This document shows positions 1,978-31,004 of a stretch of 64,000 bases of DNA, in pieces; position 1 is the first letter of the stretch, and each line of letters begins with the position of its first letter. The DNA comes from Candidatus Magasanikiibacteriota bacterium. GTDB lineage: Bacteria > Patescibacteriota > Patescibacteriia > Magasanikbacterales > UBA922. The stretch spans positions 12,777-76,776 of the forward strand of contig JABIEQ010000002.1 of assembly GCA_018651085.1 (NCBI GenBank), read 5' to 3'. Both the position numbers and the translations under genes were made by a program. The notes under the pieces were generated by a model that worked only from the letters and a program-made list of their open reading frames with translations, was not told where the DNA came from and made no database searches.

Positions 1978-3681
1978 ATGATGCACGACATACGAAAAGC
2001 ACTTAAGGCTGCACTTACTGACATTGGTATTGATGGTGATATTTCTTTTTCACCAGTACCTAACCCTGAAATAGGGGATCTTGCTTTTCCTTGTTTTTCG
2101 CTTGCTAAAGTGCGTCAGTCATCTCCAGCGGATATTGCGTTGTCTTTAGCTACAGATTTATCACAAAAAGATATTCCGTTTGTACTAAATATACAGGCTG
2201 CTGGTCCGTATGTTAATTTTTTTCTTGACCCTCAAGCGATTGCTACACATCTTTTTTCCCATATAACGTCATCATATGGATCGCATAAAACCGGGAAAGG
2301 TGAGCGATTTGTTGTTGAATATGGATGTCCTAATCCGATGAAAGCCTTTCATTTGGGGCATTTAAAAAATCTTATTACAGGGGAATCTGTGTGTCGAGTA
2401 TTTTCTAACGTTGGTCGTGAGGTTATTCGAGTAAACTATCAAGGCGATGTTGGCATGCATATTGCAAAATCTTTATGGGGAATTTTTGATTGGATTGATG
2501 AATTTCATGCATATAAAGAAAAACCTCTTCAAGAACGAGTAGAATTTTTAGGTCGTGCGTACGCGCATGGAGCACAGCATTTTGAGAAGGGAGTAAAGGA
2601 AAAAGAAGACGTTGTTTTATATAATGAAAAAGTATATACCAAAGATGCTTCTATTCAAGAAGTCTATGATCTTGCTCGATCATGGAGTTTATCTTATTTT
2701 GATACTATTTATTCAAAACTTGGATCTTGCTTTGATCGATTATATTTCGAATCAGAAGTATTTGAACGAGGCGTTGCGCTTGTGTCTGAAGGGCTTGAAA
2801 AAGGTATTTTTACAAAAAGTGATGGGGCTGTCATTTATGAAGGGAGTAAACATGACCTTCATGACAGAGTATTTTTAAATAGTAAAGGTTTTCCAACATA
2901 TGAAGCAAAAGACTTAGCATTAGCAGAAATGCATTTTGCTGATTTTTCTCCTCATAAGGTTGTGCACGTTGTTGGAAAAGAACAGACAGAGTATTTTAAG
3001 GTTGTTTTTTCTGCACTTTCTCAACTTGTCCCTCAGACTACTGGGAAAGAGTATCATCTTCCTGGAGGATACTTACAACTTAAGGGAGATAAAAAGATGA
3101 GTTCTCGTCTTGGAAATATTATTACGGGAGACGCCTTGATTTTTGAAGTAGAAAAGAAGGTTCGTGAAATTATGAGCGGTGATCTTGATCGTGCTTATAG
3201 TGAGGATGTTCTTCAAAAGGTAAGTACTTCAGCATTGAAGTATGCCATGCTTAAATCTGATGTATCTCAAGATGTTGCTTTTGACATGGAAACATCAGTA
3301 AGTACATCTGGCGAAAGTGGACCATATTTATTGTATATTGTTGCAAGAATTAATAGTATTTTACGTAAAGCAGGGGATGTATCTTCTATAAGTGATAGTG
3401 TGGAAGAGATTACTGTTGAAGAAAAACAATTATTGCTTAAGCTTTCACGATATCCTGATGTGACATTAGCTGCGGCGGCTATTCCGTATGATCCTTCTAA
3501 GATTTCACGATATTTATTTGATCTTGCTCAAAGCTTTAATGCGTTTTATCATGTTTGTCCTGTGCTTCAGGCTAAAGATGCTGATGTTCGTTTATTTCGG
3601 TTAACTCTTATTAAAGCTATTTCTCATGTAATGACACATGGGTTAGCTCTTCTTGGTATTGAAACTGTTGAAGAAATGTAA
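1978..3681 (+). CDS. argS: arginyl-tRNA synthetase
   Basis: 567 aa; HIGH-like region (CPNPMKAFHLGHLKN), ArgRS-like N-terminal and DALR-type anticodon-binding C-terminus. Confidence 0.8.
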   Translation: MMHDIRKALKAALTDIGIDGDISFSPVPNPEIGDLAFPCFSLAKVRQSSPADIALSLATDLSQKDIPFVLNIQAAGPYVNFFLDPQAIATHLFSHITSSYGSHKTGKGERFVVEYGCPNPMKAFHLGHLKNLITGESVCRVFSNVGREVIRVNYQGDVGMHIAKSLWGIFDWIDEFHAYKEKPLQERVEFLGRAYAHGAQHFEKGVKEKEDVVLYNEKVYTKDASIQEVYDLARSWSLSYFDTIYSKLGSCFDRLYFESEVFERGVALVSEGLEKGIFTKSDGAVIYEGSKHDLHDRVFLNSKGFPTYEAKDLALAEMHFADFSPHKVVHVVGKEQTEYFKVVFSALSQLVPQTTGKEYHLPGGYLQLKGDKKMSSRLGNIITGDALIFEVEKKVREIMSGDLDRAYSEDVLQKVSTSALKYAMLKSDVSQDVAFDMETSVSTSGESGPYLLYIVARINSILRKAGDVSSISDSVEEITVEEKQLLLKLSRYPDVTLAAAAIPYDPSKISRYLFDLAQSFNAFYHVCPVLQAKDADVRLFRLTLIKAISHVMTHGLALLGIETVEEM

Positions 3682-3826
3682 TATTATTTTGTATATTTCA
3701 TATATACATATTTAATGTAACATATATTGTATTTTATCTATTTTTGTATAACGGGGGTGTACTCTTTTGTTGTTTTTTTGTTGACAATTTCTCTATTCCC
3801 TACTAAAGTGAGGAAATTGGTATTTT

Positions 3827-4861
3827 ATGACTAATCAAAGCAACAATTATCAGGCGTGGAATGATGCTCTTGCGGATTTCCCCCATAATGCACTGATTAC
3901 AGAACAGCTGTCTTTTTTGCTTCGTTACGCTGTCCTGGCCCCTTCAACATTAAATTCACAACCTTGGCATTTTATTGTGCATGAGCATACAGTATTGGTT
4001 CAACCTGATTTATCTCGTTGGGAAGAAGCCACTGATTTATCTCAAAGACAAATGTATATTAGTATTGGAGCAGCAATTGAAAATTTTATCATTGCTGCTT
4101 CTTATTTTGGTTTATCTGTTTCAACATCACTTTCTCCGTTTGATAATGGTTTATTTTCTGTGCTTCTTGTTTGTGAACAGTCCCATGGAAAAATGACTGC
4201 ATTGGCACCGCTATGTCATGCAATCTCTTCTCGATCTACTCATCGTGGTCTATATCGTTCAGAAGAAATTTCCCCATCATTATTACGGCGTATTTGTGAA
4301 ATATCTTATGATACCTCTATTCATATTATTAGGGATCGTCGACAACGATTAATTGTTGGAGATATTATGCTTGAGTCTGGCATGACTGCTTTTTCTTTTT
4401 CTTCTTTACGTCGAGGTATTTCTCGATATAAACGATCAAACCTAACTCGTGATCACATTGGTATCCCTGGAAATACTATGGGATTTTCTTTAATAAAATC
4501 TTTTGTTGCTCCTTTAGCTATTCGTTTATTTAATGTTGTTCGTTTAAATTATAAACAACAAAAAGATATGTTGCGTTCGCACACTCCATATTTTGTTGTA
4601 CTATCGGCGAAAACAGATACCTGTATAGATTGGATTAATACTGGTCGTACATATCAACGAATTTCGCTTGTTTCTGAATCTCTTGGTATACGTTCTTCTG
4701 TTTGGGCTTCTCCTATTGAAATGGATAATGGCCGACGTCGATTAGCTGACCTTTTGTCTGTTTCTAAGCCGCAACTTTGTATGAGACTTGGGTATGGAAC
4801 GGCATATCCACATCGAAGTCCGCGGTTTCCTGCCGATGCAGTTACTGATATTATTATTTGA
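3827..4861 (+). CDS. nitroreductase-family flavoprotein (SagB/McbC-like dehydrogenase size class)
   Basis: 344 aa; N-terminal nitroreductase signature (LLRYAVLAPSTLNSQPWHF); ATG preceded by GAGGAAA RBS; first gene of cassette. Confidence 0.6.
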   Translation: MTNQSNNYQAWNDALADFPHNALITEQLSFLLRYAVLAPSTLNSQPWHFIVHEHTVLVQPDLSRWEEATDLSQRQMYISIGAAIENFIIAASYFGLSVSTSLSPFDNGLFSVLLVCEQSHGKMTALAPLCHAISSRSTHRGLYRSEEISPSLLRRICEISYDTSIHIIRDRRQRLIVGDIMLESGMTAFSFSSLRRGISRYKRSNLTRDHIGIPGNTMGFSLIKSFVAPLAIRLFNVVRLNYKQQKDMLRSHTPYFVVLSAKTDTCIDWINTGRTYQRISLVSESLGIRSSVWASPIEMDNGRRRLADLLSVSKPQLCMRLGYGTAYPHRSPRFPADAVTDIII

Positions 4862-4869
4862 TAGGTATT

Positions 4870-5919
4870 ATGTCAATGGAACTCATTACACATAAAGTAA
4901 AAGAACATGCTGAATATGATGGGCATGCTTTTGTGTATCATCTTCATGATGATGATATTGGTTTTGATGCATATATTGCTATTCATCGTCAGGAAGAAAT
5001 GCAGCCAGCTTTGGGGGGTACTCGATTTTGGGATTATGATTCACCTGATGATGCCATTGAAGATGTATTACGATTATCTCGGCTTATGACTTTTAAGTCT
5101 TTGGCTGCTGGGTTACCATACACTGGTGCAAAAGGGGTCATCATGCTTCCTAAAAATAAGACCTTTAATAGGGAAAAGCTTTTTGCCCAATATGCCTCTT
5201 GGGTTGAAAAACTAACAGGAAAATTTGTGACAGGAACTGATGTAGGTGTAACTAATGATGATTTGACGTGCATGGAATCTCATACTTCTCATGTGATAGG
5301 TCATGGAGTAGATTCAGGATATTTCACTGCAATTGGTTTATTTTTTGCGATTCAAAAGTGTCTAGGCGAGCGCTATGGTTCTGAGGTTATTGCTGGTAGA
5401 TCTTTTAGCATACAAGGACTTGGAAAGACGGGATTTCCGTTAGTTTCTTTTTTATATAATGCAGGTGCACGTTTGTATGTGTCTGATATTGATGAGAAAA
5501 AGGTGTCTATTGTTCAGAGCTTGTATCGAGATGTAACGGTTGTCTCAGCTGCCGATATTCATAAAATTAGTGTGGATGTTTTTTGTCCATGTGCTCTTTC
5601 TGGTGTTATTAACTTTTCTTCTTTGGAAGAGTTTGATTGTCAGATTATTGTAGGAGCCGCAAATAATCAGTTAGCTGATAATATTTTATCTGAACAATTA
5701 CATGACCGTGGTATTTTGTATGCACCTGATTTTCTTGTAAATTCTGGTGGAATGATTAGTGTTGTAGACCAATTTTTACATGGTGTCGCTGACGAAAGGC
5801 GTATATTGACTCGGGTTGCACGTGTGCCATCTGTATTGTCTCAGGTATTTTCGTTGACGCGTACAAAGGATATTTCAGTTTCTTCCGCTTTGATGGAAGT
5901 ACTTTCTTCATTAGTATAA
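4870..5919 (+). CDS. Glu/Leu/Phe/Val dehydrogenase-family protein (short LeuDH/PheDH-like)
   Basis: Catalytic-Lys region PYTGAKGVI (cf. GGAKGG) and Rossmann GxGxxG (QGLGKTG); ORF-track start 4858 is TTG, first ATG at 4870. Confidence 0.65.
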   Translation: MSMELITHKVKEHAEYDGHAFVYHLHDDDIGFDAYIAIHRQEEMQPALGGTRFWDYDSPDDAIEDVLRLSRLMTFKSLAAGLPYTGAKGVIMLPKNKTFNREKLFAQYASWVEKLTGKFVTGTDVGVTNDDLTCMESHTSHVIGHGVDSGYFTAIGLFFAIQKCLGERYGSEVIAGRSFSIQGLGKTGFPLVSFLYNAGARLYVSDIDEKKVSIVQSLYRDVTVVSAADIHKISVDVFCPCALSGVINFSSLEEFDCQIIVGAANNQLADNILSEQLHDRGILYAPDFLVNSGGMISVVDQFLHGVADERRILTRVARVPSVLSQVFSLTRTKDISVSSALMEVLSSLV

Positions 5920-5925
5920 GGTTCT

Positions 5926-7440
5926 ATGAATAGATTACATTCTTTATCTTCTTCTCCTGTCCGTTTTTTAAACGATGTGAAACGCTATCCAGAATCATAT
6001 TGGTCTCATCGTGGTTTTGTGCAAGCACTGTCTTTATTTCATCAAGCAGCAAAACGTGTTCCTGCATATAAGGATTTTTTACATACACATGGTATTAATC
6101 CTGATCTTATACAAACCAAGGGAGATTTTCAGAAAGTTCCTTTGATTGATAAAGATAACTATATTCGTAAATATCCCCTTGAGAGTTTATGTTGGGATGG
6201 TTCTTTTTCTCAAACTCCTTGGGTTATTTCTTCTACCTCAGGTTCAACTGGAGAGCCGACGTATTTTCCTAGAACAACCAAACAAGATAAATTGTATGCA
6301 GCATTAGCTGAGATGTATCTTCGGGATAATTTTTCAATCCATAAAAGAACAACGCTATATGTAAATTGTTTTGCCATGGGGGTTTGGATTGGTGGTGTCT
6401 TTACTCATCAAGCGGTGAAAATGGTAGCAGATAGAGGAGAGTATTCATTAAGTATTATTTCTCCTGGGATTAATAAGTCTGAAGCTATTAAGGCTGTGCA
6501 ACGTTTGGGAGATAAATTTGATCAAGTTATTATTGCTGGGTATCCTCCGTTTGTGAAGGATCTGATTGATGATGGTATTCAAGAAGGACTTGATTGGTCT
6601 CAATATAATGTTGGATTTATTTTTTCTGCTGAATCTTTTTCTGAAGCGTTTCGTGATTATATTTTTCGAAAATCAGGTGTTAAAGATATTTATCGTGGAT
6701 CATTAAATCATTATGGAACTGTTGATCTTGGTACAATGTCTCATGAAACACCTGTGAGTGTGCTTATTCGTCGTCTTTCTTTACAACATCGTCCATTATT
6801 TACTCGTATTTTTCAACACATCACTAAGGTGCCGACATTTACCCAGTATATCCCTGAGATGTTTTTTTTCGAGGATCTTGAAGGATCACTTGTGTGCACT
6901 GGAGATGGTGGTTTCCCGCTTATTCGGTATGATTTAAAAGATAATGGGGGCGTGTTGTCTTTTTCTCAGATTGTTGATCATTGTCATGCTTCTGGTGTAG
7001 ATATTTTTCATGAAATGGAGCGTGTAGATATTTCTGATACGTTATGGCACCTTCCGTTTGTGTATGTGTATGAGCGTAGGGATTTATCAACTACATTATA
7101 TGGGCTTAATATTTATCCAGAAACAATCCGTAAAGCACTTCAACATGAGCGTTTTGAATCATTTGTTACGGGTAAGTTTACTATGCTTACGAAGTATAAC
7201 GATAGTCAGGATCAATACCTTGAAATTCATCTTGAGCTAAAACAAGCCCAAGAATATACTGATGAACATATTCGTATTATAACGGATCATATCGTTTCTA
7301 CCTTGAAGGCGAATAATTCAGAGTACCATAAGCTTCACACTGATCTTGGTGAGCGAGCTGTCCCTGTTATTTGTATGTGGCCGTATGAAGATTTAACGTA
7401 TTTTCGACCAGGGACTAAACAAAAATGGGTAAAAAAATAA
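5926..7440 (+). CDS. adenylate-forming enzyme, phenylacetate-CoA ligase (PaaK)/F390-synthetase-like
   Basis: 504 aa; P-loop-like SSTSGSTGEPTYFPR typical of PaaK/GH3/CapK-type acyl-adenylate enzymes. Confidence 0.6.
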   Translation: MNRLHSLSSSPVRFLNDVKRYPESYWSHRGFVQALSLFHQAAKRVPAYKDFLHTHGINPDLIQTKGDFQKVPLIDKDNYIRKYPLESLCWDGSFSQTPWVISSTSGSTGEPTYFPRTTKQDKLYAALAEMYLRDNFSIHKRTTLYVNCFAMGVWIGGVFTHQAVKMVADRGEYSLSIISPGINKSEAIKAVQRLGDKFDQVIIAGYPPFVKDLIDDGIQEGLDWSQYNVGFIFSAESFSEAFRDYIFRKSGVKDIYRGSLNHYGTVDLGTMSHETPVSVLIRRLSLQHRPLFTRIFQHITKVPTFTQYIPEMFFFEDLEGSLVCTGDGGFPLIRYDLKDNGGVLSFSQIVDHCHASGVDIFHEMERVDISDTLWHLPFVYVYERRDLSTTLYGLNIYPETIRKALQHERFESFVTGKFTMLTKYNDSQDQYLEIHLELKQAQEYTDEHIRIITDHIVSTLKANNSEYHKLHTDLGERAVPVICMWPYEDLTYFRPGTKQKWVKK

Positions 7441-7449
7441 TGCGTCTAT

Positions 7450-8526
7450 ATGTTTCGATCTCCTATAATATTTCGTGAAGGGTCCTATACGTATCAGGAT
7501 ATTATTTCTTTTTTTTCATCTCACCGTGTTTGGTCTACTCGTGATATTTATGATGATCAATTACAAGAATATTTTCTTATTACTCATCCACAGTATAAAC
7601 ATCATGATACCTTTTCTGCGTTATTTTCTACGTATAAAACACAAGTACTCAATGGTCGCATAGAAGCTATGTGTGGAAATTGGGTGTATTTTCCTTGGAG
7701 TGGTCGGATGGTACATATGGTCTCTGAAGGTATGCACCATGCTCTTCGAACAAATAGAAATCATTTATTAATTACTCAGGAAGAACAAAAAATGCTTTTG
7801 AATGTATCAATTGCTGTCGCTGGTCTTTCTATTGGTTCTTCTATTATTTCTACATTAGTTCATAATGGTATTGGTCGAAATCTTCGTTTGGCTGATCATG
7901 ATATATTTGAAACAACAAACATGAATAGGGTTCGATCTCGTATAGATCAAGTGGGTGTCTCTAAAGTATCTATTGTTACTGAACAGCTTTTTGAAATAAA
8001 TCCGTATTTAGTTATTGATCCTTTTTCTCAGGGAGTTGATGCTTCTAATTTAGTGGACTTTGTGCGTCCTTCTTCTACATATCCATTAATACTTTTTGAA
8101 GCGATTGATGATTTTAAGATGAAAGTTCGTTTACGGCTTCAGGCGAAAAAAAATGGGGTTCCTGTTGTTATGCTTACGAATCTTGGAGATGGTATACTTA
8201 TTGATATTGAAAGGTATGATATTGATCCTCAAACAAAGATGTTTAATGGACTTGTTGGAGATGTACCTGAACGTATTTTGTCGTCTTCTTGTACAGAAGA
8301 GGATATGAAGCAGTTTGCTGTGTCTCTTGTTGGAAAGGAACATGTGCCACAACGAGCCTTTTTGTCTCTTGAACAAATGGGAAAGACTCTTGTCGGGCGT
8401 CCTCAACTCATGGGAACCGTCACGGCTTCAAGTGGAATTGCTCCCTATATTGTTCGTCGTATGTTATTTGGTCCTTCACTTGCTAGTGGTCGATACTATA
8501 TTCACTTTGATACTGTTTTGTCTTAA
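7450..8526 (+). CDS. ThiF/MoeB/E1-like adenylyltransferase family protein
   Basis: 358 aa; Rossmann AGLSIGSS...DHDIFETTNMNRV matches ThiF VGAGGLGS...D.D.VE.SNLNRQ. Confidence 0.6.
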   Translation: MFRSPIIFREGSYTYQDIISFFSSHRVWSTRDIYDDQLQEYFLITHPQYKHHDTFSALFSTYKTQVLNGRIEAMCGNWVYFPWSGRMVHMVSEGMHHALRTNRNHLLITQEEQKMLLNVSIAVAGLSIGSSIISTLVHNGIGRNLRLADHDIFETTNMNRVRSRIDQVGVSKVSIVTEQLFEINPYLVIDPFSQGVDASNLVDFVRPSSTYPLILFEAIDDFKMKVRLRLQAKKNGVPVVMLTNLGDGILIDIERYDIDPQTKMFNGLVGDVPERILSSSCTEEDMKQFAVSLVGKEHVPQRAFLSLEQMGKTLVGRPQLMGTVTASSGIAPYIVRRMLFGPSLASGRYYIHFDTVLS

Positions 8527-8531
8527 ATTAT

Positions 8532-9413
8532 ATGAATAAAGAAGAGGCGACTCTTCAATCTCGTATACGCACAACACTTTCTTTTTCGTATATTACATCT
8601 GGTACTCGTCAGATTCGTGTTGTAAAGGGGGGAAAAGGGCCTCCTCTTCTTTTAATACACGGAGCAAATATTGGTTGGGGACAATGGTACAAAAATATTG
8701 ATGCGTTTTCATCTCGATTTACCGTATATGCTTTTGATTTTCCTAATGCTGGGGCTTCCTCTCGTTTGTCATATACTGCATTTGATAGTTCAAAAGATTT
8801 ATTAGATGTTTGTCGTGATGTTATAGATCATTTTCAGATTTATTCGTGTATTGCACTTGGTCATTCCATTGGTGGGTGGGTAGGATTACAGCTTGCACTT
8901 CAAGATCCAGAAATATTTTCGGCTTTAATCGTAACGAATTCGCTTGGTTTTACTCATAATGTTACGTTTTCTCAACGTCTTTTATCTTTTTTTCCTTTTG
9001 TGTCTTTTTTATCTCGATATGTTGTTCCTCCAGACAGAAAACATCTTAAGAAATTTCTGGGTGATGCGATGTGTGATCCGTCATTACTTGAAGACGAGTT
9101 TGTTGATTATTATGTTTCGGCTGTATTAAGATCTCCCGTTTCTCATCCGTTTATGTTTATGCATGCGTGCATGGATTTCTTTCGATTAAAGTCTCAGTTT
9201 GTATTGTCTTCACAATTAGAGTCATTACATGTCCCAACATTAGCGTTATTTGGTGCATCTGATCCTTTAATTTCTGTGTCTTCACAACTACAAGCTCTTT
9301 CTTCTCATGTACATATTACAACACATGTTTTTTCTGATGTTGGACATACTCCTTTTTTAGAAAAGCCTGATGTGTTTAATGATGCTGTTTTTTCTTGGCT
9401 TGATACGGTATAA
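8532..9413 (+). CDS. alpha/beta-fold hydrolase
   Basis: HGxxxxxxW oxyanion region (LLLIHGANIGWGQW) and nucleophile elbow GHSIGG. Confidence 0.7.
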   Translation: MNKEEATLQSRIRTTLSFSYITSGTRQIRVVKGGKGPPLLLIHGANIGWGQWYKNIDAFSSRFTVYAFDFPNAGASSRLSYTAFDSSKDLLDVCRDVIDHFQIYSCIALGHSIGGWVGLQLALQDPEIFSALIVTNSLGFTHNVTFSQRLLSFFPFVSFLSRYVVPPDRKHLKKFLGDAMCDPSLLEDEFVDYYVSAVLRSPVSHPFMFMHACMDFFRLKSQFVLSSQLESLHVPTLALFGASDPLISVSSQLQALSSHVHITTHVFSDVGHTPFLEKPDVFNDAVFSWLDTV

Positions 9414-9420
9414 TAGATGA

Positions 9421-11115
9421 ATGGAAAGCATTTTATCTATACAATTCACTTTTTTTGTTACTGCATTTGTTTCAAACATTCTTCTTGCTGTTGCTGTTTT
9501 TAAAAATCCTACACAAGGTGCAACACATCGTATTTTTGTGTGGCTTACTGTTGTTACATCGTTGTGGGTTTCAGTCATGTATATTTCAGTACAAGATTTT
9601 GCGTATCAATGGAGTCTTATTTTAATTCGTTTGTCTGTATTTTTGGCAGCTCCAATGAGTATGCTCTTTTTTTTATTTTCACATACGATACCTAATGTGA
9701 AAATTCAGTTATCTCGTTGGCGCTTACATTTGTGTTTTATTCTTACGGGAATTTCGATGTTGCTTGCGCTTTCTCCATTTACGTTTTCTGGGGTAGAGCA
9801 TATTGCCGGAGAACTTATCCCTATTCCTGGCCTTGGTTTACTTTTTTTTGTTGTGTTATCTACGGCCTTTAGTCTTAGTGCTACGCTTCTTCTTATTCGG
9901 AAGTTTCTTCATGAAAAAGGAAAGCCTCGGCGGCGTTTCCAACTTATTTTAACAGGTATTTTTTTAATGCTTGGTTTTGTCATTTGTACTATTTTAATTC
10001 CTGTTGTTTTTTTACAAAATAGTACTTTTGTTTCTTTTGCTCCGGTATATACATCATTTTTTCTGATTACGACAGGAATTGCAATTATTCGCTACCAGTT
10101 ATTTAACATTAAGGTTATTGCGACGGAGTCGTTAGTGATTGTCCTTGCTATTATTTTGTTTTTTGAAGGATTATTATCTGGTTCTTTTTTCCAATTGGCA
10201 TATAAATTTTTGTTCGCAGGACTCATTGTTCTTTTGGGTGCTTTTCTTATTAAAAGTGTTAAGCGTGAGATTCAAGAGCGAGAAGAAATTGCTCATTTAG
10301 CAAAATCATTAGAAAAAGCAAACATTCGTCTTCATGAACTTGATCGGCAAAAGACGGAATTTTTGTCTATTGCTTCTCATCAATTGCGTACACCGCTTTC
10401 TATTATTAAAGGGTATATTGAGCTTATTGAAGATGGAGTATATGGGAAAGTTACAAGAAAAATGAAAAAGGTACTTCATGATATGGATGACAGTAATGAA
10501 CGACTGGTTAAGCTTATTGATGAATTTCTTGATATTACACGTATTGAACAAGGACGGACGAAGTTTACTTTTGAAGATAAAGACATGAATGAGCTTATTA
10601 CAAGCGTTGTCCATGAATTAACACCAAAAGCAGATACAAAGAAGTTGAAACTTATTTGGAAACCAACAAAATCAGCATTAACGGTATGTATGGATGAAGA
10701 ACGAGTGCGTCATGTTGTTTTTAATTTTATTGATAATGCTATTAAGTATACAAATAAAGGAAAGGTCCGTGTTATGGTAGAAAAAGAGAAGGAAATAATC
10801 ATTGTGCGTGTACGAGATAGTGGTATTGGGTTTAACAAAGAAGATCAAGCAAGTTTTTTTCATAAGTTTTATCGAGGAGAAAATGTTAAAGGGACAAACA
10901 TTAATGGAACGGGGCTTGGTATTTATGTTGCTCGAAAATTTATTGAAAAGCATAAAGGGGAAGTTTGGGCTGTAAGTCCGGGACTTTCTAAAGGATCTGA
11001 ATTTGGTTTTTCTATACCAATTGCTAAAAAACAAGCAAAAAAGAAACAAGCGTTGGTTGACGACAGTGCTCAGTACGTTGTAAATCAATACGGTGGAAAA
11101 AAGAAAAAGAGGTAA
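9421..11115 (+). CDS. membrane-bound sensor histidine kinase (multi-TM N-terminal sensor, HisKA + HATPase_c)
   Basis: About 7 predicted TM helices, H-box ASHQLRTPLSIIKGY, N/G boxes (DNAIKYT, GTGLGIYVARK); no response regulator adjacent. Confidence 0.8.
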   Translation: MESILSIQFTFFVTAFVSNILLAVAVFKNPTQGATHRIFVWLTVVTSLWVSVMYISVQDFAYQWSLILIRLSVFLAAPMSMLFFLFSHTIPNVKIQLSRWRLHLCFILTGISMLLALSPFTFSGVEHIAGELIPIPGLGLLFFVVLSTAFSLSATLLLIRKFLHEKGKPRRRFQLILTGIFLMLGFVICTILIPVVFLQNSTFVSFAPVYTSFFLITTGIAIIRYQLFNIKVIATESLVIVLAIILFFEGLLSGSFFQLAYKFLFAGLIVLLGAFLIKSVKREIQEREEIAHLAKSLEKANIRLHELDRQKTEFLSIASHQLRTPLSIIKGYIELIEDGVYGKVTRKMKKVLHDMDDSNERLVKLIDEFLDITRIEQGRTKFTFEDKDMNELITSVVHELTPKADTKKLKLIWKPTKSALTVCMDEERVRHVVFNFIDNAIKYTNKGKVRVMVEKEKEIIIVRVRDSGIGFNKEDQASFFHKFYRGENVKGTNINGTGLGIYVARKFIEKHKGEVWAVSPGLSKGSEFGFSIPIAKKQAKKKQALVDDSAQYVVNQYGGKKKKR

Positions 11116-11179: not shown

Positions 11180-11683
11180 ATGTTTCAAAAACCATCTTCA
11201 GACATAGCACTTTCACAACGATCTTCTGACGGGACTCCTGATGACGTTGAAACCGTTGTTGGTCCATCTGTTCATGTTCAAGGAGATTTTGCCTCAGAAG
11301 GGAATATTCTTGTGAAGGGGAGTGTATCTGGAAATGTGAAGACCAGTCGACTTTTGACGGTGGAGGAAGGAGCGAGTATCATGGCTAATGTGAAAGCTGG
11401 GGAAGCATTGGTATCAGGTCAGATTCATGGTAATGTGACTGCCTCTACGACTGTTGAACTTACTGCAAGTGCTCGTATCGTTGGAGACATTAAGTGTGCA
11501 AACCTTGTTGTTGAAGCTGGTGCACTTATTTATGGGAAAGTAGCTATGGTTGGTCTCAAGGATCTTGTAGGAGAAAAAAGTGAAAAAAAAAGGACTAGTA
11601 GACGAAAAAAAACACGCACAAGCTTGCCTTCTGAAGCTCATGATGATGTGTCTTCTGAAGAAGACAATATGGGGGATGTATAG
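11180..11683 (+). CDS. bactofilin-family cytoskeletal protein
   Basis: Repetitive beta-helical segments (ILVKGSVSGNV..., IHGNVTAS..., IVGDIKCANLVVEAGALIYGKV) and charged C-tail. Confidence 0.65.
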   Translation: MFQKPSSDIALSQRSSDGTPDDVETVVGPSVHVQGDFASEGNILVKGSVSGNVKTSRLLTVEEGASIMANVKAGEALVSGQIHGNVTASTTVELTASARIVGDIKCANLVVEAGALIYGKVAMVGLKDLVGEKSEKKRTSRRKKTRTSLPSEAHDDVSSEEDNMGDV

Positions 11684-11720
11684 TACTGTTTAGTCCTTAG
11701 TCTTGCGAGATATATCATAT

Positions 11721-12482
11721 ATGTACGTCTATCTCTACGATAGCTTTTTAAAGCACAAAAAATACGATTCCTTAATTAAATCAATGGAAACCAGATTGAC
11801 AGATTTTGGCATCGCTGGTAAGATAATTCGACTTCAACATTTTACGAACACTCAAGCAATCATTGAAGAAGAAATTGCTCGAGGAGCAACGGCCATTGTG
11901 ATTGTAGGAAATGATAAAACGTTTGGACATGTATTGTCTCGTGCAGCATCGTCTTCAATTCTATTTGGTTTTTTACCTGTTGGCCAAGACAATTCTATTG
12001 CTTCGGTTCTTGGTATTCCCGTTGGTGTTGAATCTTGTGATGTGTTATCTCGAAGACGAAAGGTTGATCTTGATGTTGGTTGGTTTAACAATCGTTACTT
12101 TGTTTCTCAACTGCATATTCCTTTGGCTGATATTACGATTCAGTATGATGAAAAGTTTTCAGTGTCATCTAAAAATGGAGGATTAGAACTCGTTGTGTGT
12201 AATTTGCAACCGTTTGTGTGGAAAGAACGTGGTGGTAAAGAATATGTTGTTCATCCGCAAGACGGAAAACTTGAAGCATTTTTACGTCCACTTCTTCATA
12301 AAAGGTTGTTTAGTCACAAGTTTGAAGAACCGAGTATCTTTCCATTTGAAGAGATGATTGTAACGGGAACAAAACCGTTTGTGGTTTCTGCTGATGGGAA
12401 AGAATCTAAAGAAACGAAAATTACTATTCGTCTTGCAAAAAACAGAATACGGATGGTGGTTGGAAAGACTCGACAATTTTAA
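11721..12482 (+). CDS. diacylglycerol/lipid kinase catalytic-domain family protein
   Basis: DAGK_cat-like core (IVIVGNDKTFGHV, cf. GGDGT); ORF-track start 11703 is TTG, first ATG 11721. Confidence 0.45.
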   Translation: MYVYLYDSFLKHKKYDSLIKSMETRLTDFGIAGKIIRLQHFTNTQAIIEEEIARGATAIVIVGNDKTFGHVLSRAASSSILFGFLPVGQDNSIASVLGIPVGVESCDVLSRRRKVDLDVGWFNNRYFVSQLHIPLADITIQYDEKFSVSSKNGGLELVVCNLQPFVWKERGGKEYVVHPQDGKLEAFLRPLLHKRLFSHKFEEPSIFPFEEMIVTGTKPFVVSADGKESKETKITIRLAKNRIRMVVGKTRQF

Positions 12483-12489
12483 AATATAT

Positions 12490-12574
12490 GCGCAGGTGGT
12501 GAAATTGGTAAACACGCTAGCTTGAGGGGCTAGTGCTCTTTTTGAGCTTGGAGGTTCAAGTCCTCTTCTGCGCA
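12490..12574 (+). tRNA. tRNA-Leu (anticodon GAG), long variable arm
   Basis: Cloverleaf folds: acceptor GCGCAGG/CTGCGC, anticodon stem CTAGC/GCTAG with loop TTGAGGG, T-loop GGTTCAAGTCC, class II variable arm. Confidence 0.85.
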
Positions 12575-12577
12575 CTT

Positions 12578-13382: not shown

Positions 13383-13742
13383 TACAATTTAACCTCTAAA
13401 TTTGCCCATTTATTTTATATATAGGGTATTTTTGTGTTATTTGTAATACATAGAAGTTTACACGATAGCACAATGTTATGGTGTTTTTTTATTGTATAGA
13501 GGGCCTCTTTGTACTTGACATATTGCTCATTTTTTGTTATGGTCTCCTGTTGTGATTTGATGAGTTTTTTCGATTTTATCAATCAGTTTTTGTATAAATG
13601 AAAATTGATTGGTGAAATCGAAAGTAAAAGCTATGGCCCGGCCTCACAATCGTGTGAGGTGTCGGCATCCTGAATGGACAGGATGGCTCTGATTGTATCA
13701 GAGTGGAGCCACACTGGCTTATAGAAAGAGAAAGAGGTACAT

Positions 13743-14285
13743 ATGTCTCAAGATGAAGAGATCATCTTGACGTGGACCCCAACGGATAAGAACGCTGTGA
13801 TCACGATCAACAGCTTTCCCTTCCCTGACGGAGAAGCTCTGGAGCTGCGGGGGGTGTCTCGAAGGGGGTATCACCTTTTCTTGCCGGAAAAATCTGGCGG
13901 CGAGCTCCCAAAGATCGAGAAGGCCTTCGGCCTCTGGGCAGGCCAGATCATGGCCAAGGTGGAGCGCCGAATCGTGGTTGCGTTTGAGAGAACGCGAATT
14001 GAAGAACACGATGGATTTTATTTCATCGTTCCTCTTCGCCATGATCTGGTGTCAGCAGACACCGACGGGGACACTCTTCACGAGTTCCCTTTCGACCACA
14101 CCGTCTTCACCGCTCGTTCACAGCTCGGGACGTACCATTTTCGGATGGACATTCCCGACGGGAACGTGGAAGATGTTCGGCAGTCATTGATTGCTTGGGC
14201 CGAAGGTCTCGAGTTCGTGTACCTTTATTGGGACGAACTCGTTGCAACCGATGACCCGAAGCACACCCTCCGCATCTCCCTTTGA
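13743..14285 (+). CDS. hypothetical protein encoded in a GC-rich island (about 55% GC versus about 38% background)
   Basis: 180-aa ORF with protein-like composition; long structured 5' leader; no recognisable motif. Confidence 0.5.
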   Translation: MSQDEEIILTWTPTDKNAVITINSFPFPDGEALELRGVSRRGYHLFLPEKSGGELPKIEKAFGLWAGQIMAKVERRIVVAFERTRIEEHDGFYFIVPLRHDLVSADTDGDTLHEFPFDHTVFTARSQLGTYHFRMDIPDGNVEDVRQSLIAWAEGLEFVYLYWDELVATDDPKHTLRISL

Positions 14286-14457
14286 GTCGTCTAGACTTCC
14301 TCGCGAGCTCTCGCGTATACCTGAGCCGGCGCTTCGTATGTCTGTTAGATACGATTGGCTTCTGTCGAGCTGCCATACTAAATGCTCGACACTTCCCTTA
14401 TCACATTCTTTAATCGAAGGATGTGATATAGAAGAATGCTATTCACTCTATTGAATT

Positions 14458-14490
14458 TAAAAATGATCTTCATATGAAGATCATTTTTTG
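14458..14490. terminator. bidirectional intrinsic terminator
   Basis: aaaaatgatcttcatatgaagatcatttttt perfect hairpin flanked by A/T runs, between convergent genes. Confidence 0.65.
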
Positions 14491-14510
14491 TTATTCTTTT
14501 TGTACGTGTA

Positions 14511-15236
14511 TTAAAAGAAGATTATGTTAATCAAAGAAACAGTAATAACTGTTTGAATAAAACTTTTCCAATGGTTTCCTTTTGGAAACATGAAAATGTG
14601 TTGCATACGTACTGGAAGATAGAATGCTCCTAGAAGGATGGTGGTCCCTATGAGGTTTGTAAGAATGTCTGACTCATTAATAGTATAAAATTGATTGGTT
14701 ACAATAGAAAAAAGAATTGCAGATTGTAATATAAGAACTATGGTAGCGATTATATTTTTATAGGAAACCATTGGTGTTTCTTTTTTTGTTTTTGACCGAA
14801 GTGCAATGGTATAAAATAATGGAATACAACTTATAGTAAAAGCAATAAGAATAAAAAATAGGATGCCTCCAAAAAAGGTGTGATAAAATATATCAATAAT
14901 GTTTGGAATATATAATGTTACGATATTTTGTATGACGTAATGGAAAAAAATGAATGCCATGATCATTGGTCCACCAAGATACATCGTGAACATCGTAAGA
15001 AGTGGGTACTCTTTGGTAATTTTTTGCACTCCTTTTTGGTAGTGTGGTGTAAAGGCTAATAGTATGATTGTAATAATAAAAAGGATGGTACTGATTCCTG
15101 GCCAAAAAGAAGTTGTTGGTAAAATAGCTTCTCGTATATAAGGGATTTGTATAATACCTGCAATTCCAATCGCTAAAAGATCAAATAAGTGGAAACGAAT
15201 CCAACTATCTTCGAATATGTCTGTTTCTCTACTCAT
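14511..15236 (-). CDS. polytopic integral membrane protein (6-7 TM), function unknown
   Basis: 241 aa, highly hydrophobic with multiple TM segments; weak CPBP-like FxxxH...N pattern only. Confidence 0.5.
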   Translation of the reverse strand: MSRETDIFEDSWIRFHLFDLLAIGIAGIIQIPYIREAILPTTSFWPGISTILFIITIILLAFTPHYQKGVQKITKEYPLLTMFTMYLGGPMIMAFIFFHYVIQNIVTLYIPNIIDIFYHTFFGGILFFILIAFTISCIPLFYTIALRSKTKKETPMVSYKNIIATIVLILQSAILFSIVTNQFYTINESDILTNLIGTTILLGAFYLPVRMQHIFMFPKGNHWKSFIQTVITVSLINIIFF

Positions 15237-16857: not shown

Positions 16858-16892
16858 AAAAAACACCGCATACTGTATGCGGTGTTTTTTTG
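16858..16892. terminator. bidirectional intrinsic terminator (DsbA-like gene / rnpB)
   Basis: aaaaacaccgcatactgtatgcggtgttttttt. Confidence 0.7.
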
Positions 16893-16893
16893 T

Positions 16894-17297
16894 CTTATCT
16901 ATATTGTAAGCCGAATTCTGTTTCCACTAAAAGTGGAGATGATCATTTCTCTAGATCCATTGTTACCAATGGTCTTAAACGAGCTACCTTTTCGAACGCA
17001 CATAATTGCGAACGCTGCTCTTTCTCCAGGTAGGGTTTACCACGTATTCCTGTTGCCAGGATACGAGCGTTGTAGCCTTTTATCTCGAGAGTAAAAAACA
17101 TCAACGCACTTTTCACCTTTTTTTATCCAAAGAATGGATAAGTAGTATTGTCTCTGTGGCACTTTCCCGCGCATAGTGTTGCCACTATACGGGTGGGTGT
17201 TACCCACTACCATGACATATCCCGAAGGATATGGGAGTTCGGACTTTCCTCACCACCCCTTAATGGGAGGGTGCGATCATCGCATGTAGATAAGACT
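16894..17297 (-). ncRNA. rnpB: RNase P RNA (bacterial type A-like)
   Basis: Minus strand has P4 GAGGAAAGUCCGAACUC, GGGUAACACCCACC...GCCACAGAGACAA, ACAGAAUUCGGCUUAC near the 3' end; P1 pairs gucuuaucua with uagauaagac; region about 50% GC. Confidence 0.85.
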
Positions 17298-17356
17298 GAC
17301 ATAATATAGCTTATTTTAGCTCTTTTGTCAAGTTGCTAAACTCCCTTTTTTGGGCT

Positions 17357-18805
17357 ATGATAGAGGTGTTTTTAATACTATACCTTATGAAGCGTTCAGA
17401 AATGCTTCTCATGATTGCGACTGTTCCTGTGGATTTCCTTATGCTCATGTTTGCGGCAGTTTGTTCGTATCAGCTTCGATTTACTGATTGGGCCTTATCT
17501 CTTCGGGCCGTGACATTCGAACTTTCTTTTTCTTCGTTTATACATCTTTCTATTTGGGTGGCGTTATTGTGGTTAGTTATTTTTGCTAGTTTGAAATTAT
17601 ATACACCAGACGCTAACCGTAAACTAGCGAATGATTTTGTGCGGGTTATCACTGGTTGTTTTATTGGTCTTGGTATTGTTGCTATTTACGTTATGTTTAC
17701 GCAACAATTATTTGATTCTCGTTTTCTTGTCATTACAAGTTTTATTTTCTCTGTAGTGTTTGTCCTTTTAGGACGGTTAGTTATGCGGGGGGTAAAATCA
17801 GTGTTATATCGTATGGGCGTTGGGCTTCGTCGGGTGGTTCTTATTGGTGAGGATGCTTCTATTAAAGATATATCTATTGAATTAAATACAAGAAGAGAGT
17901 TGGGATATCGTGTGATAGGAACATTTTCTTCGTTTAGTAAGGCTGTTGAAAAAAAGCTTCTTGATGTATCTACTGATGAAGTAATTTTTGTTCGTCCTAG
18001 ATTTGATGATGAGGCACTTATTTCAGCTATCTCTTTTTGTCACGAGCATCATATTACATTTAAGTATGCAGCAGATTTATTTTCGTCATATGCAAGCCAT
18101 GTGACAGTGCATCCGTTAGCTGGGGTTCCTATTGTTGAACTTAGACGAACACCGCTTGAAGGGTGGGGGCGTGTGGCAAAGCGATTATTTGATATCATTG
18201 TCAGTATTTGCGTATTAGTGTTGTTTTCTCCACTGTATGTATTACTGATTTTTTTGGTTTTTATTGATAGTGGTCGCCCTATTATTTATAAAAATGCTCG
18301 GGTTGGGGTTCGTGGAGCATTGTTTACTGCATATAAGTTCCGATCAATGTATCAAAAGGACTGTACAGGGCCTCAATTTGGAGTTTCAGGCAAAAAAGCA
18401 CTTAAAAAGGAAGAGGAACTCATTGAAAAACAAAATACCCGTGTAGGGCCCATTTATAAGGTTGGGAATGATCCTCGAGTGACTTCGTTTGGCAGGGTCC
18501 TTCGACGTATTAGTCTTGATGAGTTTCCACAGTTTGTGAATGTGCTAAAAGGAGATATGAGTATTGTTGGGCCCCGGCCTCATCAGCCTCGTGAGGTATC
18601 TGGATATATTGAAGAACATAAAAAAGTGTTTACGGTAAAGCCAGGTATCACAGGTCTTTCTCAAATTTCTGGACGAAGTGATTTACTTTATGACGATGAG
18701 GTTCGTCTAGATGTATTTTATATTGAACACTGGAGTTTATTGCTTGATCTTATTATTCTTGTTAAAACCCCATTTATTTTGTTTAGACGCCGACGGGCAT
18801 TGTAA
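17357..18805 (+). CDS. polyprenyl-phosphate glycosyl-1-phosphate transferase (WbaP/bacterial sugar transferase family)
   Basis: N-terminal TM helices and conserved C-terminal sugar-transferase domain ([36 protein letters not shown]); TTG at 17333, first ATG 17357. Confidence 0.8.
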
Positions 18806-18809
18806 GTAT

Positions 18810-19934
18810 ATGAAAGTTGCTTTGGTTCATGATTATCTTTCGCAAGATGGGGGAGCGGAACGTGTATTACAGGCTTTTCGAGATATATATCCCGAAGCGC
18901 CTATTTTTGTGTTGTTTCATGATAAGAAAAAACTTCCGCAGTTTGTTACTTCTGATATTCGACAATCATTTATTTCAAAGATGCCTTTTGGAAAAACAAA
19001 GTATCAATGGTATTTACCATGGATGCCTTTAGCAACTGAGCGTCATAATCTTCATGATTTTGATTTAGTGTTGTCGTCAACGAGTGCATTTGCTAAAGGG
19101 ATATTAACACGGCCTGAGACGCTTCATATTTCTTATTGTCATTCTCCAACACGATATTTGTGGACTGATACGCACGAATATATTCATGATTTAAAATATA
19201 ATCGATTTATTAAAGCTTTTTTACCACGGCTTATCCATAAACTTCGTTTATGGGATCGTGCAAGCGTTGATCGGGTTGATCATTTTATTGCAAATTCTGA
19301 CACGGTGCGTCATCGCATTCAAAAGTACTATAGACGAAAGAGTGATATCGTGTATCCGCCTGTTGATACGCATCTTTTTTCTCGTTCTACAAAAATACAG
19401 AATTATTTTATTTCTGGTGGACGATTTGTTCCGTATAAACGGTTTGATTTAGTGATTCAAGCATTCAATCGTTTGGGATGGCCATTGAAATTATTTGGAG
19501 ATGGTCCTGAGCTTGCGCGATTGAAAAAATTTGCTAAACCAAACATTCAATTTATTGGACGAGTGACTGATGAAAGAAAAATACAGCTTATTCGAGATGC
19601 AAAAGCGTTTATTCATCCACAAGTAGAAGATCTTGGTATTACACCAATAGAATCTATGGCAAGTGGTCGCCCGGTTATTGCTTACGGTGTTGGTGGTGTT
19701 ACTGAAACGGTCATTCCTGGTGTTACGGGGTTGTTTTTTGATCGCCAAGATTGGGAGTCACTTGTTGATGTGTTGCTTTCTTTTGATACACATACGTGGG
19801 ATAGCGCATTGATTCAGGCTCATGCAAGTAAGTTTAGTGCTAATAGATTTAAAGAACAAATAAGAACGTATATACAAAAGCGGTATAGTACTTTTCTCCA
19901 AGAGATGCAGCAGTGTCGTCTTGATGTGCGTTAA
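18810..19934 (+). CDS. glycosyltransferase family 1 (GT4-type)
   Basis: MKVALVHDYLSQDGGAERV N-terminus and C-terminal GT1 nucleotide-sugar binding region; start set at internal ATG. Confidence 0.75.
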   Translation: MKVALVHDYLSQDGGAERVLQAFRDIYPEAPIFVLFHDKKKLPQFVTSDIRQSFISKMPFGKTKYQWYLPWMPLATERHNLHDFDLVLSSTSAFAKGILTRPETLHISYCHSPTRYLWTDTHEYIHDLKYNRFIKAFLPRLIHKLRLWDRASVDRVDHFIANSDTVRHRIQKYYRRKSDIVYPPVDTHLFSRSTKIQNYFISGGRFVPYKRFDLVIQAFNRLGWPLKLFGDGPELARLKKFAKPNIQFIGRVTDERKIQLIRDAKAFIHPQVEDLGITPIESMASGRPVIAYGVGGVTETVIPGVTGLFFDRQDWESLVDVLLSFDTHTWDSALIQAHASKFSANRFKEQIRTYIQKRYSTFLQEMQQCRLDVR

Positions 19935-19941
19935 TTTTTAT

Positions 19942-30847: not shown

Positions 30848-30853
30848 GTTGTG

Positions 30854-30927
30854 TGCACCCGGCAGGACTCGAACCTACAACCTTCTGGTCCGAAGCCAGA
30901 CGCTCTATCCAGTTGAACTACGGGTGC
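30854..30927 (-). tRNA. tRNA-Arg (anticodon TCG)
   Basis: Reverse complement GCACCCGTAGTTCAACTGGATAGAGCGTCTGGCTTCGGACCAGAAGGTTGTAGGTTCGAGTCCTGCCGGGTGCA; anticodon loop CUUCGGA. Confidence 0.85.
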
Positions 30928-30931
30928 ATTG

Positions 30932-31004
30932 TGCGCCGTGGGGGATTCGAACCCTCGACCGTTTGGTTAAGAGCCAACTGCTCTACCAACTGAGCTAACG
31001 GCGC
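30932..31004 (-). tRNA. tRNA-Lys (anticodon CTT)
   Basis: Reverse complement GCGCCGTTAGCTCAGTTGGTAGAGCAGTTGGCTCTTAACCAAACGGTCGAGGGTTCGAATCCCCCACGGCGCA; anticodon loop CUCUUAA. Confidence 0.85.

Follow-up and report, generated by a model that had tools for sequence, protein, structure and literature searches.

A probable Patescibacterial variant of the oxazolone pathway encoded beside a 7TM sensor kinase

Bacterial oxazolones (azlactones) are formed by ThiF-like enzymes acting together with flavin-dependent oxidases, and TrzS, TyzB/TyzC and OxzB have been shown biochemically to cyclize and desaturate N-acyl amino acids (PMC12856293, PMC10404671, PMC12596934). TrzS converts N-acyl tryptophan to N-acyl tryptazolone by ATP-dependent cyclization followed by O2-dependent desaturation (PMC12856293); the same chemistry is carried out by the separate TyzB and TyzC proteins of Mycobacterium tuberculosis (PMC10404671) and by the fused OxzB of Pseudoalteromonas (PMC12596934; bioRxiv 10.1101/2020.06.11.147165). 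According to a review, the oxazolone type is the sole ThiF-like enzyme known to have a small-molecule substrate (PMC12596934). The locus described here lies in a 64,000-nucleotide stretch of DNA from Candidatus Magasanikiibacteriota bacterium (NCBI GenBank assembly GCA_018651085.1, contig JABIEQ010000002.1, positions 12,777 to 76,776 of the forward strand), which as a whole is referred to below as the window. It consists of five enzyme genes encoding a nitroreductase (NTR), an ELFV-family amino-acid dehydrogenase, a PaaK-like adenylating enzyme, a ThiF/E1-like protein and an alpha/beta hydrolase, followed by the gene of a sensor histidine kinase (Table 1). We consider this cassette to be probably a Patescibacterial variant of the OxzAB/TyzACB/TrzAS pathway with a cognate seven-transmembrane (7TM) sensor kinase.

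The closest described system is TrzAS (Rv1356c/Rv1355c of M. tuberculosis and M. smegmatis; PMC12856293), the product of which is an N-acyl tryptazolone. Like the window, it combines a ThiF cyclase carrying an N-terminal extension with an Acg-like flavin mononucleotide (FMN) oxidase, its adenylation Asp is conserved in the window ThiF, and signalling genes are adjacent in both (cyclic di-GMP genes in M. tuberculosis, a kinase gene in the window). In the window, however, the cyclase and the oxidase are separate proteins whose genes are separated by two others, although some Patescibacterial relatives have them as a fusion; the TrzA acyltransferase is absent and a PaaK-family ligase is encoded instead, an ELFV dehydrogenase and a hydrolase are added, and the host is a Patescibacterium. 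The clusters TyzACB (Rv2336-Rv2338c) and OxzAB (Pseudoalteromonas rubra), which yield N-acyl tyrazolones, and the NasY/ThiF/nitroreductase clusters, which yield N-acyl dehydrotyrosines, share the same logic of ATP-dependent cyclization by ThiF and flavin-dependent desaturation (PMC10404671, PMC12479983, bioRxiv 10.1101/2020.06.11.147165), and in Tyz the cyclase and desaturase are stand-alone proteins as in the window. These clusters are defined by an N-acyl-amino-acid synthase with the N-acyl homoserine lactone (AHL) synthase/FeeM fold, whereas the window has none; their acyl donor is a fatty acyl-coenzyme A (CoA) or acyl-acyl carrier protein, whereas the window pathway probably uses a free acid, derived from an amino acid and activated by means of ATP.

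The ThiF-like protein and the nitroreductase

The ThiF-like protein is 100% identical to one named from Candidatus Magasanikbacteria and was matched by the Rv1355c family model NF005901 over residues 5-357 (244 bits, E 2e-72), the runner-up family reaching 79 bits. It aligns to positions 13-339 of the model, the N-terminal half of which is matched along the whole length of the protein, its N-terminal extension of some 100 residues included, and NTR aligns to positions 369-583 in the C-terminal half. The adenylation site of ThiF is intact (nucleotide loop, Arg-finger motif, Lys and Mg/alpha-phosphate Asp); 22 homologs and the fused proteins all share the GLSxG loop, D151, N157/N159/R160, K172 and D220 without variation. 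D220 was matched to D217 of TrzS by motif and not by structure; cyclization is abolished in the TrzS D217A mutant (PMC12856293), and TrzS R540A loses desaturation.

NTR was matched by the Acg/Rv3131-family FMN oxidoreductase model NF047509 at 183 bits (cutoff 199), and the closest solved structure is Acg (PDB entry 2YMV), which has also been reported as a relative of the flavin-dependent oxidase (FDO) domain of TrzS (PMC12856293). In fused ThiF-FDO proteins the FDO half is collinear with NTR, which retains the APSxxNxQPW motif. Joined end to end, ThiF and NTR are collinear with complete fused proteins, including those of L015 and L021 (Saccharimonadales) and of L072 (Bacteroidia); the last of these, of the fused TrzS type, scores 739 bits with the Rv1355c family model, above its cutoff of 476. 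A flavin-dependent oxidase of the FDO subgroup (sub-cluster A or B) shares the operon of ThiF in the window and is fused to it in L015 and L021. As far as sequence comparison can tell, ThiF and NTR are a split form of the characterized oxazolone synthase (TrzS/Rv1355c, TyzB/TyzC, OxzB). On the strength of this homology the two proteins are assigned the roles of cyclase and FDO desaturase, and it is very likely that they act as such a pair.

In a first-pass annotation of the window NTR had been taken for a SagB-type enzyme, which the Acg-family match does not bear out; no SagB-type model matched NTR at E <= 0.01, and no MccB/PaaA-type model matched ThiF. The option left there that ThiF might be a bona fide MoeB is likewise set aside: activation of a sulfur carrier was rejected (MoeB model, 44 bits versus a cutoff of 266; ThiF model, 69 bits versus 159), as was a TcdA assignment (35 bits versus 304), and no ORF (open reading frame) of >=50 aa ending in Gly-Gly, as expected of a ThiS/MoaD-like carrier, was found in the 64-kb window. 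The same annotation had proposed a new amino-acid-derived small-molecule route. This stands in outline, except that the ThiF/nitroreductase pair at its centre has already been characterized as an oxazolone synthase (PMC10404671, PMC12856293).

Acylation, accessory enzymes and conservation of the gene set

In order to assess conservation, 80 loci from species-representative genomes were retrieved by alignment of ThiF homologs and their ORFs were clustered without bias. A histidine kinase was present in 68 loci, ThiF in 66 (plus fused forms), the PaaK-like protein in 63, NTR in 56, a single-domain response regulator in 28, ELFV in 23 or more and the alpha/beta hydrolase in 17 or more. The genomes concerned are of the Magasanik, Saccharimonadia, Woese, Roizman, Kaiser, Nomura and Margulis types. 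Their flanks vary by lineage (argS/tyrS, dnaK/dnaJ, murD/folD, or an RNase II/R-like gene with smc), the genes of the set occur in permuted order and some loci encode NTR on the opposite strand, which argues that the gene set itself is conserved and not an inherited synteny. A second sampling, seeded by three PaaK-like homologs in place of ThiF, recovered the same clusters including the kinase arrangement.

Gene fusions in relatives link every one of the five enzyme types and were checked to be free of internal stops. They comprise ELFV-PaaK-ThiF (L011, 7310-11068, 1252 aa), ELFV-NTR (704 aa) and ThiF-hydrolase (∼660 aa) in L012 (6323-8437 and 9959-11968), a further ThiF-hydrolase (L009, 9983-11947, ∼660 aa), PaaK-ThiF (protein P0203, 863 aa) and ThiF-NTR (L015, L021). 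Because these fusions join all five types, the enzymes are taken to form one pathway. The first-pass reading, which had been made to depend on co-conservation of the five genes, is not refuted, with PaaK, ThiF and NTR occurring together in most of the 80 loci and all five linked by fusions. In the ELFV-NTR fusion the NAD(P)-dependent dehydrogenase and the flavoprotein might be coupled through a redox step.

An N-acyl-amino-acid synthase is the hallmark of every described oxazolone or N-acyl dehydrotyrosine pathway (PMC12479983, PMC10404671). No such enzyme (OxzA/TyzA/TrzA/NasY, AHL-synthase/FeeM fold) was found by tblastn and profile hidden Markov model searches in the window or in the 62 PaaK-type loci. 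The loci lacking PaaK are all from Bacteroidota, and there a 231-aa protein, c11, is encoded directly after the ThiF-FDO gene. By sequence c11 gave nothing significant in Pfam, NCBIfam or PDB profile searches; its predicted structure (pLDDT 90.7) was matched best in Foldseek by BjaI, RpaI, FeeM and LasI, of which FeeM and BjaI have also been reported as neighbours of TyzA (PMC10404671). The c11 family has 1826 matches, annotated in nearly all cases as 'hypothetical'. PaaK alone was present in 62 loci, c11 alone in nine and both in none. The two are mutually exclusive, which is most simply read as the PaaK-like enzyme supplying the N-acyl amino acid, and we propose that a divergent PaaK-family enzyme takes the place of the N-acyl-amino-acid synthase that depends on acyl-CoA, an arrangement that is new with respect to the known pathways.

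The PaaK-like protein has no Pfam match and, at 47 bits against TIGR02155 (cutoff 646), lies below the level of the PaaK equivalog. Its AlphaFold2 model (pLDDT 89.4) has a complete two-domain PaaK/ANL fold, and the TSGSTGEP P-loop and the invariant K498 are kept. Foldseek ranked PaaK1/2 and BT_0428 first, followed by the NatL2-type ligase 6SIW and ClxA 9S3L. The NatL2-type ligase and ClxA are PaaK-family enzymes that form amide or ester bonds without CoA by passing the acyl-adenylate to a second small molecule (PMC7204872, PMC12519233). As enzymes of benzoxazole biosynthesis (PMC7204872, PMC9400959, PMC12519233) they share the fold of the window enzyme (Foldseek E 1e-15 to 1e-17) and provide a precedent for acyl-adenylate transfer to O or N, but their identity to it is 16-17% and they belong to another pathway with other substrates, amide formation in the window being a prediction. 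The chances that the PaaK-like enzyme acts as an amide ligase appear about even.

Both ELFV domains (PF02812, PF00208) are present in the dehydrogenase, and the GGTR, K, D and GLGKTG motifs are seen in the alignment. Among solved relatives it scored 219 bits with LeuDH (3VPX) and 206 bits with TrpDH (5B37); against the ScyB model the score of 261 bits was far under the cutoff of 600, which places it outside that equivalog. A Gly occupies the position of LeuDH Ala113, as in TrpDH; there is a weak hint in the sequence that the substrate may be bulky or aromatic. In seven other loci, none of which has ELFV, the core is accompanied by a class I/II aminotransferase; a histidine ammonia-lyase scoring over the HutH cutoff is found in three loci and an FkbO/Hyg5-like chorismatase, under the cutoff, in two. 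ELFV, aminotransferase, HutH-type lyase and chorismatase all yield carboxylic acids lacking an alpha-amino group from amino acids or chorismate, and to a moderate degree these acid-making enzymes fit a supply of acyl donors to the PaaK-type ligase.

The hydrolase has an intact GHSIGG nucleophile motif and reaches the cutoff of no equivalog. Without exception its gene comes immediately after ThiF, and L009 and L012 encode the two as a fusion. The enzyme possibly opens the activated oxazolone ring or transfers it; natural N-acyl dehydrotyrosines resemble ring-opened oxazolones (PMC12479983).

Proposed pathway, sensor kinase and rival readings

In the pathway proposed for the window, the ELFV dehydrogenase would interconvert an amino acid of bulky hydrophobic or aromatic type and the corresponding 2-oxo acid and so supply a building block (a carboxylic acid or an amino acid), a position that in other lineages may be filled by the aminotransferase, histidine ammonia-lyase or chorismatase-like enzyme. 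The PaaK-family enzyme would adenylate a carboxylic acid and couple it to an amino acid through the alpha-amine, so that an N-acyl amino acid results. By homology, ThiF would then adenylate the carboxylate of this intermediate and attack by the amide oxygen would close a 5(4H)-oxazolone, the C-alpha/C-beta bond of which would be desaturated by the Acg-type flavoprotein to give a conjugated oxazolone. The hydrolase may open the ring or transfer the activated acyl ring, for example to give an N-acyl dehydroamino acid. Finally, the HisKA_7TM kinase would either sense the product or control the operon, and its co-conservation suggests that the unit is a signalling or stress module. The roles of the ligase, dehydrogenase and hydrolase are assigned from co-conservation, fusions and complementary distribution.

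The kinase was matched by PF16927 at 43 bits (cutoff 28.6), which together with PF00512 and PF02518 places it in the HisKA_7TM class. A kinase of this family adjoins the cluster in 53 of the 80 loci and lies within two genes of it in 63; most of the 13 loci without a kinase stop at a contig edge. In the window only 7 nt separate the hydrolase and kinase genes and no terminator-like site was found between them. The kinase had initially been regarded as a boundary of the cluster; it is instead a member of the conserved unit, and this genomic coupling is new compared with the known oxazolone pathways. Kinases are not mentioned in the oxazolone papers, and a search of the open-access literature gave no paper that connects oxazolone genes with kinases, PaaK-type ligases or Patescibacteria. 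What oxazolones do in the physiology of bacteria is considered a major unresolved question by their discoverers, who have speculated on signalling and noted the cyclic di-GMP genes beside trzAS (PMC12856293; bioRxiv 10.1101/2020.06.11.147165).

A second form of the coupling is found in Bacteroidota. In every sampled genome, including the cultured Dyadobacter fanqingshengii (L082, CP098806.1 2265169-2281861), a Chitinophagaceae isolate (L086, CP197396.1) and L087, the canonical cluster continues with a 7TMR-DISM histidine kinase, a response regulator-histidine kinase hybrid and a receiver protein, and a further receiver gene lies upstream on the opposite strand. The resulting six-gene module thus reads: receiver on the minus strand, then ThiF-FDO (∼760 aa), c11, 7TMR-DISM kinase, hybrid and receiver, with some start and stop codons overlapping. 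In D. fanqingshengii the TrzS-type ThiF-FDO fusion, which belongs to the same ThiF family as that of the window, is directly beside the 7TM kinase; unlike the window, this locus keeps c11, has the 7TMR-DISM kinase, the hybrid and two receiver proteins, and is without PaaK, ELFV and hydrolase.

That the kinase senses the product of the pathway can be suggested tentatively. More broadly, oxazolones or ring-opened N-acyl dehydroamino acids might be autoinducer-like signals with dedicated 7TM histidine-kinase receptors encoded beside the synthases, in a chemical signalling system of Patescibacteria and Bacteroidota not recognized before. In Patescibacteria, with their limited lipid and CoA metabolism, a PaaK-type amide ligase using ATP would build the signal from free acids derived from amino acids. 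Taken as a whole this proposal is rather doubtful. A possible analogy is offered by LuxM/LuxN-type AHL systems, where the genes for synthesis of an acylated, amino-acid-derived and hydrolytically labile ring lie beside the gene of a multi-pass membrane kinase. Their enzymes and kinase sensor domain are unrelated to those of the window, and the analogy rests on the genes, not on product release or sensing. Oxazolone products are themselves chemically labile, being destroyed by acid and methanol (PMC12856293).

Several points weigh against the reading of the cassette as an oxazolone pathway with a cognate kinase. The functions of the proteins of this variant are predicted ones. NTR falls just under the Acg-family cutoff and the FDO half of TrzS is matched weakly (63 bits). 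The characterized desaturases require O2, and many Patescibacteria are thought to be anaerobic. The PaaK-like protein might instead be a conventional CoA ligase feeding an acyltransferase encoded outside the 64-kb window. Adjacency of the kinase indicates a functional link and is not a demonstration of product sensing, and no response regulator was found in the window by tblastn with 13 receiver domains from related loci. Some loci are without NTR (for example L084) or without ELFV and hydrolase, so the end product may differ between lineages. Several taxonomic labels of the metagenome-assembled genomes (MAGs) are unreliable.

Three of these points are accompanied by further observations. The window kinase seems to be an orphan, and in its close relatives L004, L007, L017 and L083 the kinase gene is followed by bactofilin and DAGK-like genes and not by a regulator. 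L084 (JGI 3300072658, Ga0613702_000005) has an aminotransferase gene on the minus strand, followed by PaaK, ThiF, a GAF-containing histidine kinase and a response regulator; no nitroreductase was found in this 15.5-kb locus (7 kb either side of the PaaK gene), and such lineages may end the pathway with the saturated oxazolone or rely on an oxidase encoded farther away. MAGs labelled 'uncultured Gammaproteobacteria' (L001, L002, L004, L005, L007, L008 and others) carry the cluster and HisKA_7TM kinases, and their argS/tyrS are 33-50% identical to Magasanikbacteria genes; these labels are probably wrong.

The alternative that survives best accepts an oxazolone-type product and assigns the kinase a different part, namely that it merely regulates the operon under external stress or that the enzymes are its regulated output. 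Oxazolone production is induced by antibiotics in Proteobacteria and the tyz locus of M. tuberculosis has been tied to oxidative stress (PMC12856293; bioRxiv 10.1101/2020.06.11.147165); many kinases adjoin genes under their control, and the type of sensor differs by phylum (HisKA_7TM versus 7TMR-DISM). However, the window kinase is encoded downstream in the same transcription unit and not divergently, the association holds across two phyla although the acylating enzyme is swapped, and the membrane sensor domains of both kinase types are polytopic, as would suit lipophilic ligands. We regard a purely regulatory kinase as rather unlikely.

A module for the catabolism or salvage of aromatic or branched amino acids, in which ELFV would deaminate, PaaK would activate with CoA and the hydrolase would hydrolyse while ThiF and NTR are unrelated or provide auxiliary redox, was left as an option by the first-pass annotation. 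The PaaK relatives are phenylacetate-CoA ligases, and ELFV enzymes and meta-cleavage-type hydrolases (weak HsaD/BphD matches were obtained) are known from degradation pathways. Such a module is nevertheless improbable given the co-conservation in 80 loci and the fusions: no further paa or ring-cleavage genes lie nearby, the PaaK-like protein is far below the cutoff of PaaK proper, its invariant partners are ThiF and NTR and not ELFV or the hydrolase, it is fused directly to ThiF, and it and an N-acyl-amino-acid synthase are mutually exclusive occupants of the same genomic slot.

The first-pass suggestion of TOMM/LAP or MccB-type peptide tailoring fares worst. Here, ThiF would activate a nucleoside or else a peptide or protein at its C-terminus, in the manner of TOMM, microcin C or pantocin or of TcdA-like RNA modification, and NTR would oxidize the resulting heterocycle. 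All other characterized ThiF-like enzymes do act on proteins, peptides or tRNA (PMC12596934), the pairing of an E1-like protein with a nitroreductase-fold flavoprotein is known in TOMM systems, and the ∼100-aa N-terminal extension of ThiF has no assigned role; that extension is, however, shared with TrzS, which acts on small molecules (PMC12856293). The likeness to SagBCD, McbBCD and MccB/PaaA is at superfamily level only: no YcaO or precursor is found in or beside the cluster, NTR is of the Acg/FDO type and ThiF, with catalytic motifs kept, falls in the TrzS clade. Because ThiF and NTR match a TrzS-type synthase and a precursor is neither needed nor found, and since SagB-type, MccB/PaaA-type and TcdA-level matches, a conserved small ORF and a Gly-Gly-ended ORF in the window are all lacking, this alternative is highly improbable.

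Layout of the window and significance

The five tightly packed enzyme genes of the first-pass annotation were confirmed by an ORF check of the window, with correct coordinates on the plus strand, and profile searches showed the assignments to be good to superfamily level. The TTG start of the ELFV gene overlaps the NTR stop by 4 nt, an in-frame ATG at 4870 giving an 8-nt gap instead; the remaining gaps inside the cassette are 6, 9 and 5 nt. A single promoter with a ribosome-binding site had been proposed ahead of NTR. The consensus site and the GAGGAAA sequence are present, but promoter-like sites are not enriched in the region (32 versus 31.3 in shuffles), so this promoter, though plausible, is unproven. 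Reading downstream, a strong terminator is first met at ∼12580, behind tRNA-Leu. The initial statement that YcaO, radical-SAM and transporter genes are missing from and beside the cluster held up, and no conserved small ORF was found there. As precursor-peptide candidates, three short hydrophobic or low-complexity ORFs (>=20 aa, 3640-3860) were rejected, none being conserved in the 80 loci (scattered tblastn matches, E > 0.4).

Table 1. Features of the window (positions in nucleotides from the first letter of the 64,000-nucleotide stretch).
Feature	Position	Strand	Length	Families and remarks
argS	1978-3681			upstream of cassette
Promoter-like TTGACA-17-TAAAGT	3781-3809	+		consensus match; then GAGGAAA ribosome-binding site before the NTR gene (3781..3817)
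Nitroreductase (NTR), Acg/FDO-type	3827-4861	+	344 aa	
ELFV amino-acid dehydrogenase, LeuDH/PheDH/TrpDH branch	4858-5919	+	353 aa	PF02812, PF00208
Divergent PaaK-family (ANL) adenylating enzyme	5926-7440	+	504 aa	fold by model
ThiF/E1-like protein, TrzS/TyzB/OxzB type	7450-8526	+	358 aa	NF005901
Alpha/beta hydrolase or acyltransferase	8532-9413	+	293 aa	PF00561, PF12697
Sensor histidine kinase, HisKA_7TM + HisKA + HATPase_c	9421-11115	+		PF16927, PF00512, PF02518
Bactofilin	11180-11683	+		PF04519
DAGK-like kinase	11703-12482	+		PF00781
tRNA-Leu(GAG)	12490-12575	+		
RNase P RNA, class A	16891-17293	-		181 bits
tRNA-Arg(TCG), tRNA-Lys(CTT)	30853-31004	-		

The bactofilin and DAGK-like pair is kept only in eight Magasanikbacteria-like loci; these genes are probably lineage-specific downstream neighbours that lie outside the system. 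The RNase P RNA and the three tRNAs are ordinary housekeeping RNAs. A GC-rich island at 13500-14500 (GC 0.477 versus 0.33-0.39 on either side) contains an ORF at 13743-14285 (180 aa) and an antisense ORF at 13719-14042, and may be foreign DNA or a non-coding element; neither the 180-aa product nor that of a 241-aa minus-strand ORF at 14511-15236 had a Pfam match. Within a run of sugar-transferase and glycosyltransferase genes (17333-21474), the ORF at 19921-21474 (517 aa) joins a GT4 glycosyltransferase to a MazG-like domain at the C-terminus and weakly matches 'GT4 in conflict systems'.

The coupling of an oxazolone-type synthase to a 7TM kinase in two distant phyla provides a concrete receptor candidate, and the cultivable organisms among them (Dyadobacter, Chitinophagaceae) make the signalling question testable. 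If correct, the ATP-dependent PaaK-type ligase would be a second entry route into oxazolone chemistry and possibly a useful amide-forming biocatalyst. Patescibacteria have reduced genomes with very little specialized metabolism or signalling; this would be one of their few widespread small-molecule pathways, and it could bear on how Patescibacterial episymbionts sense their hosts or one another.

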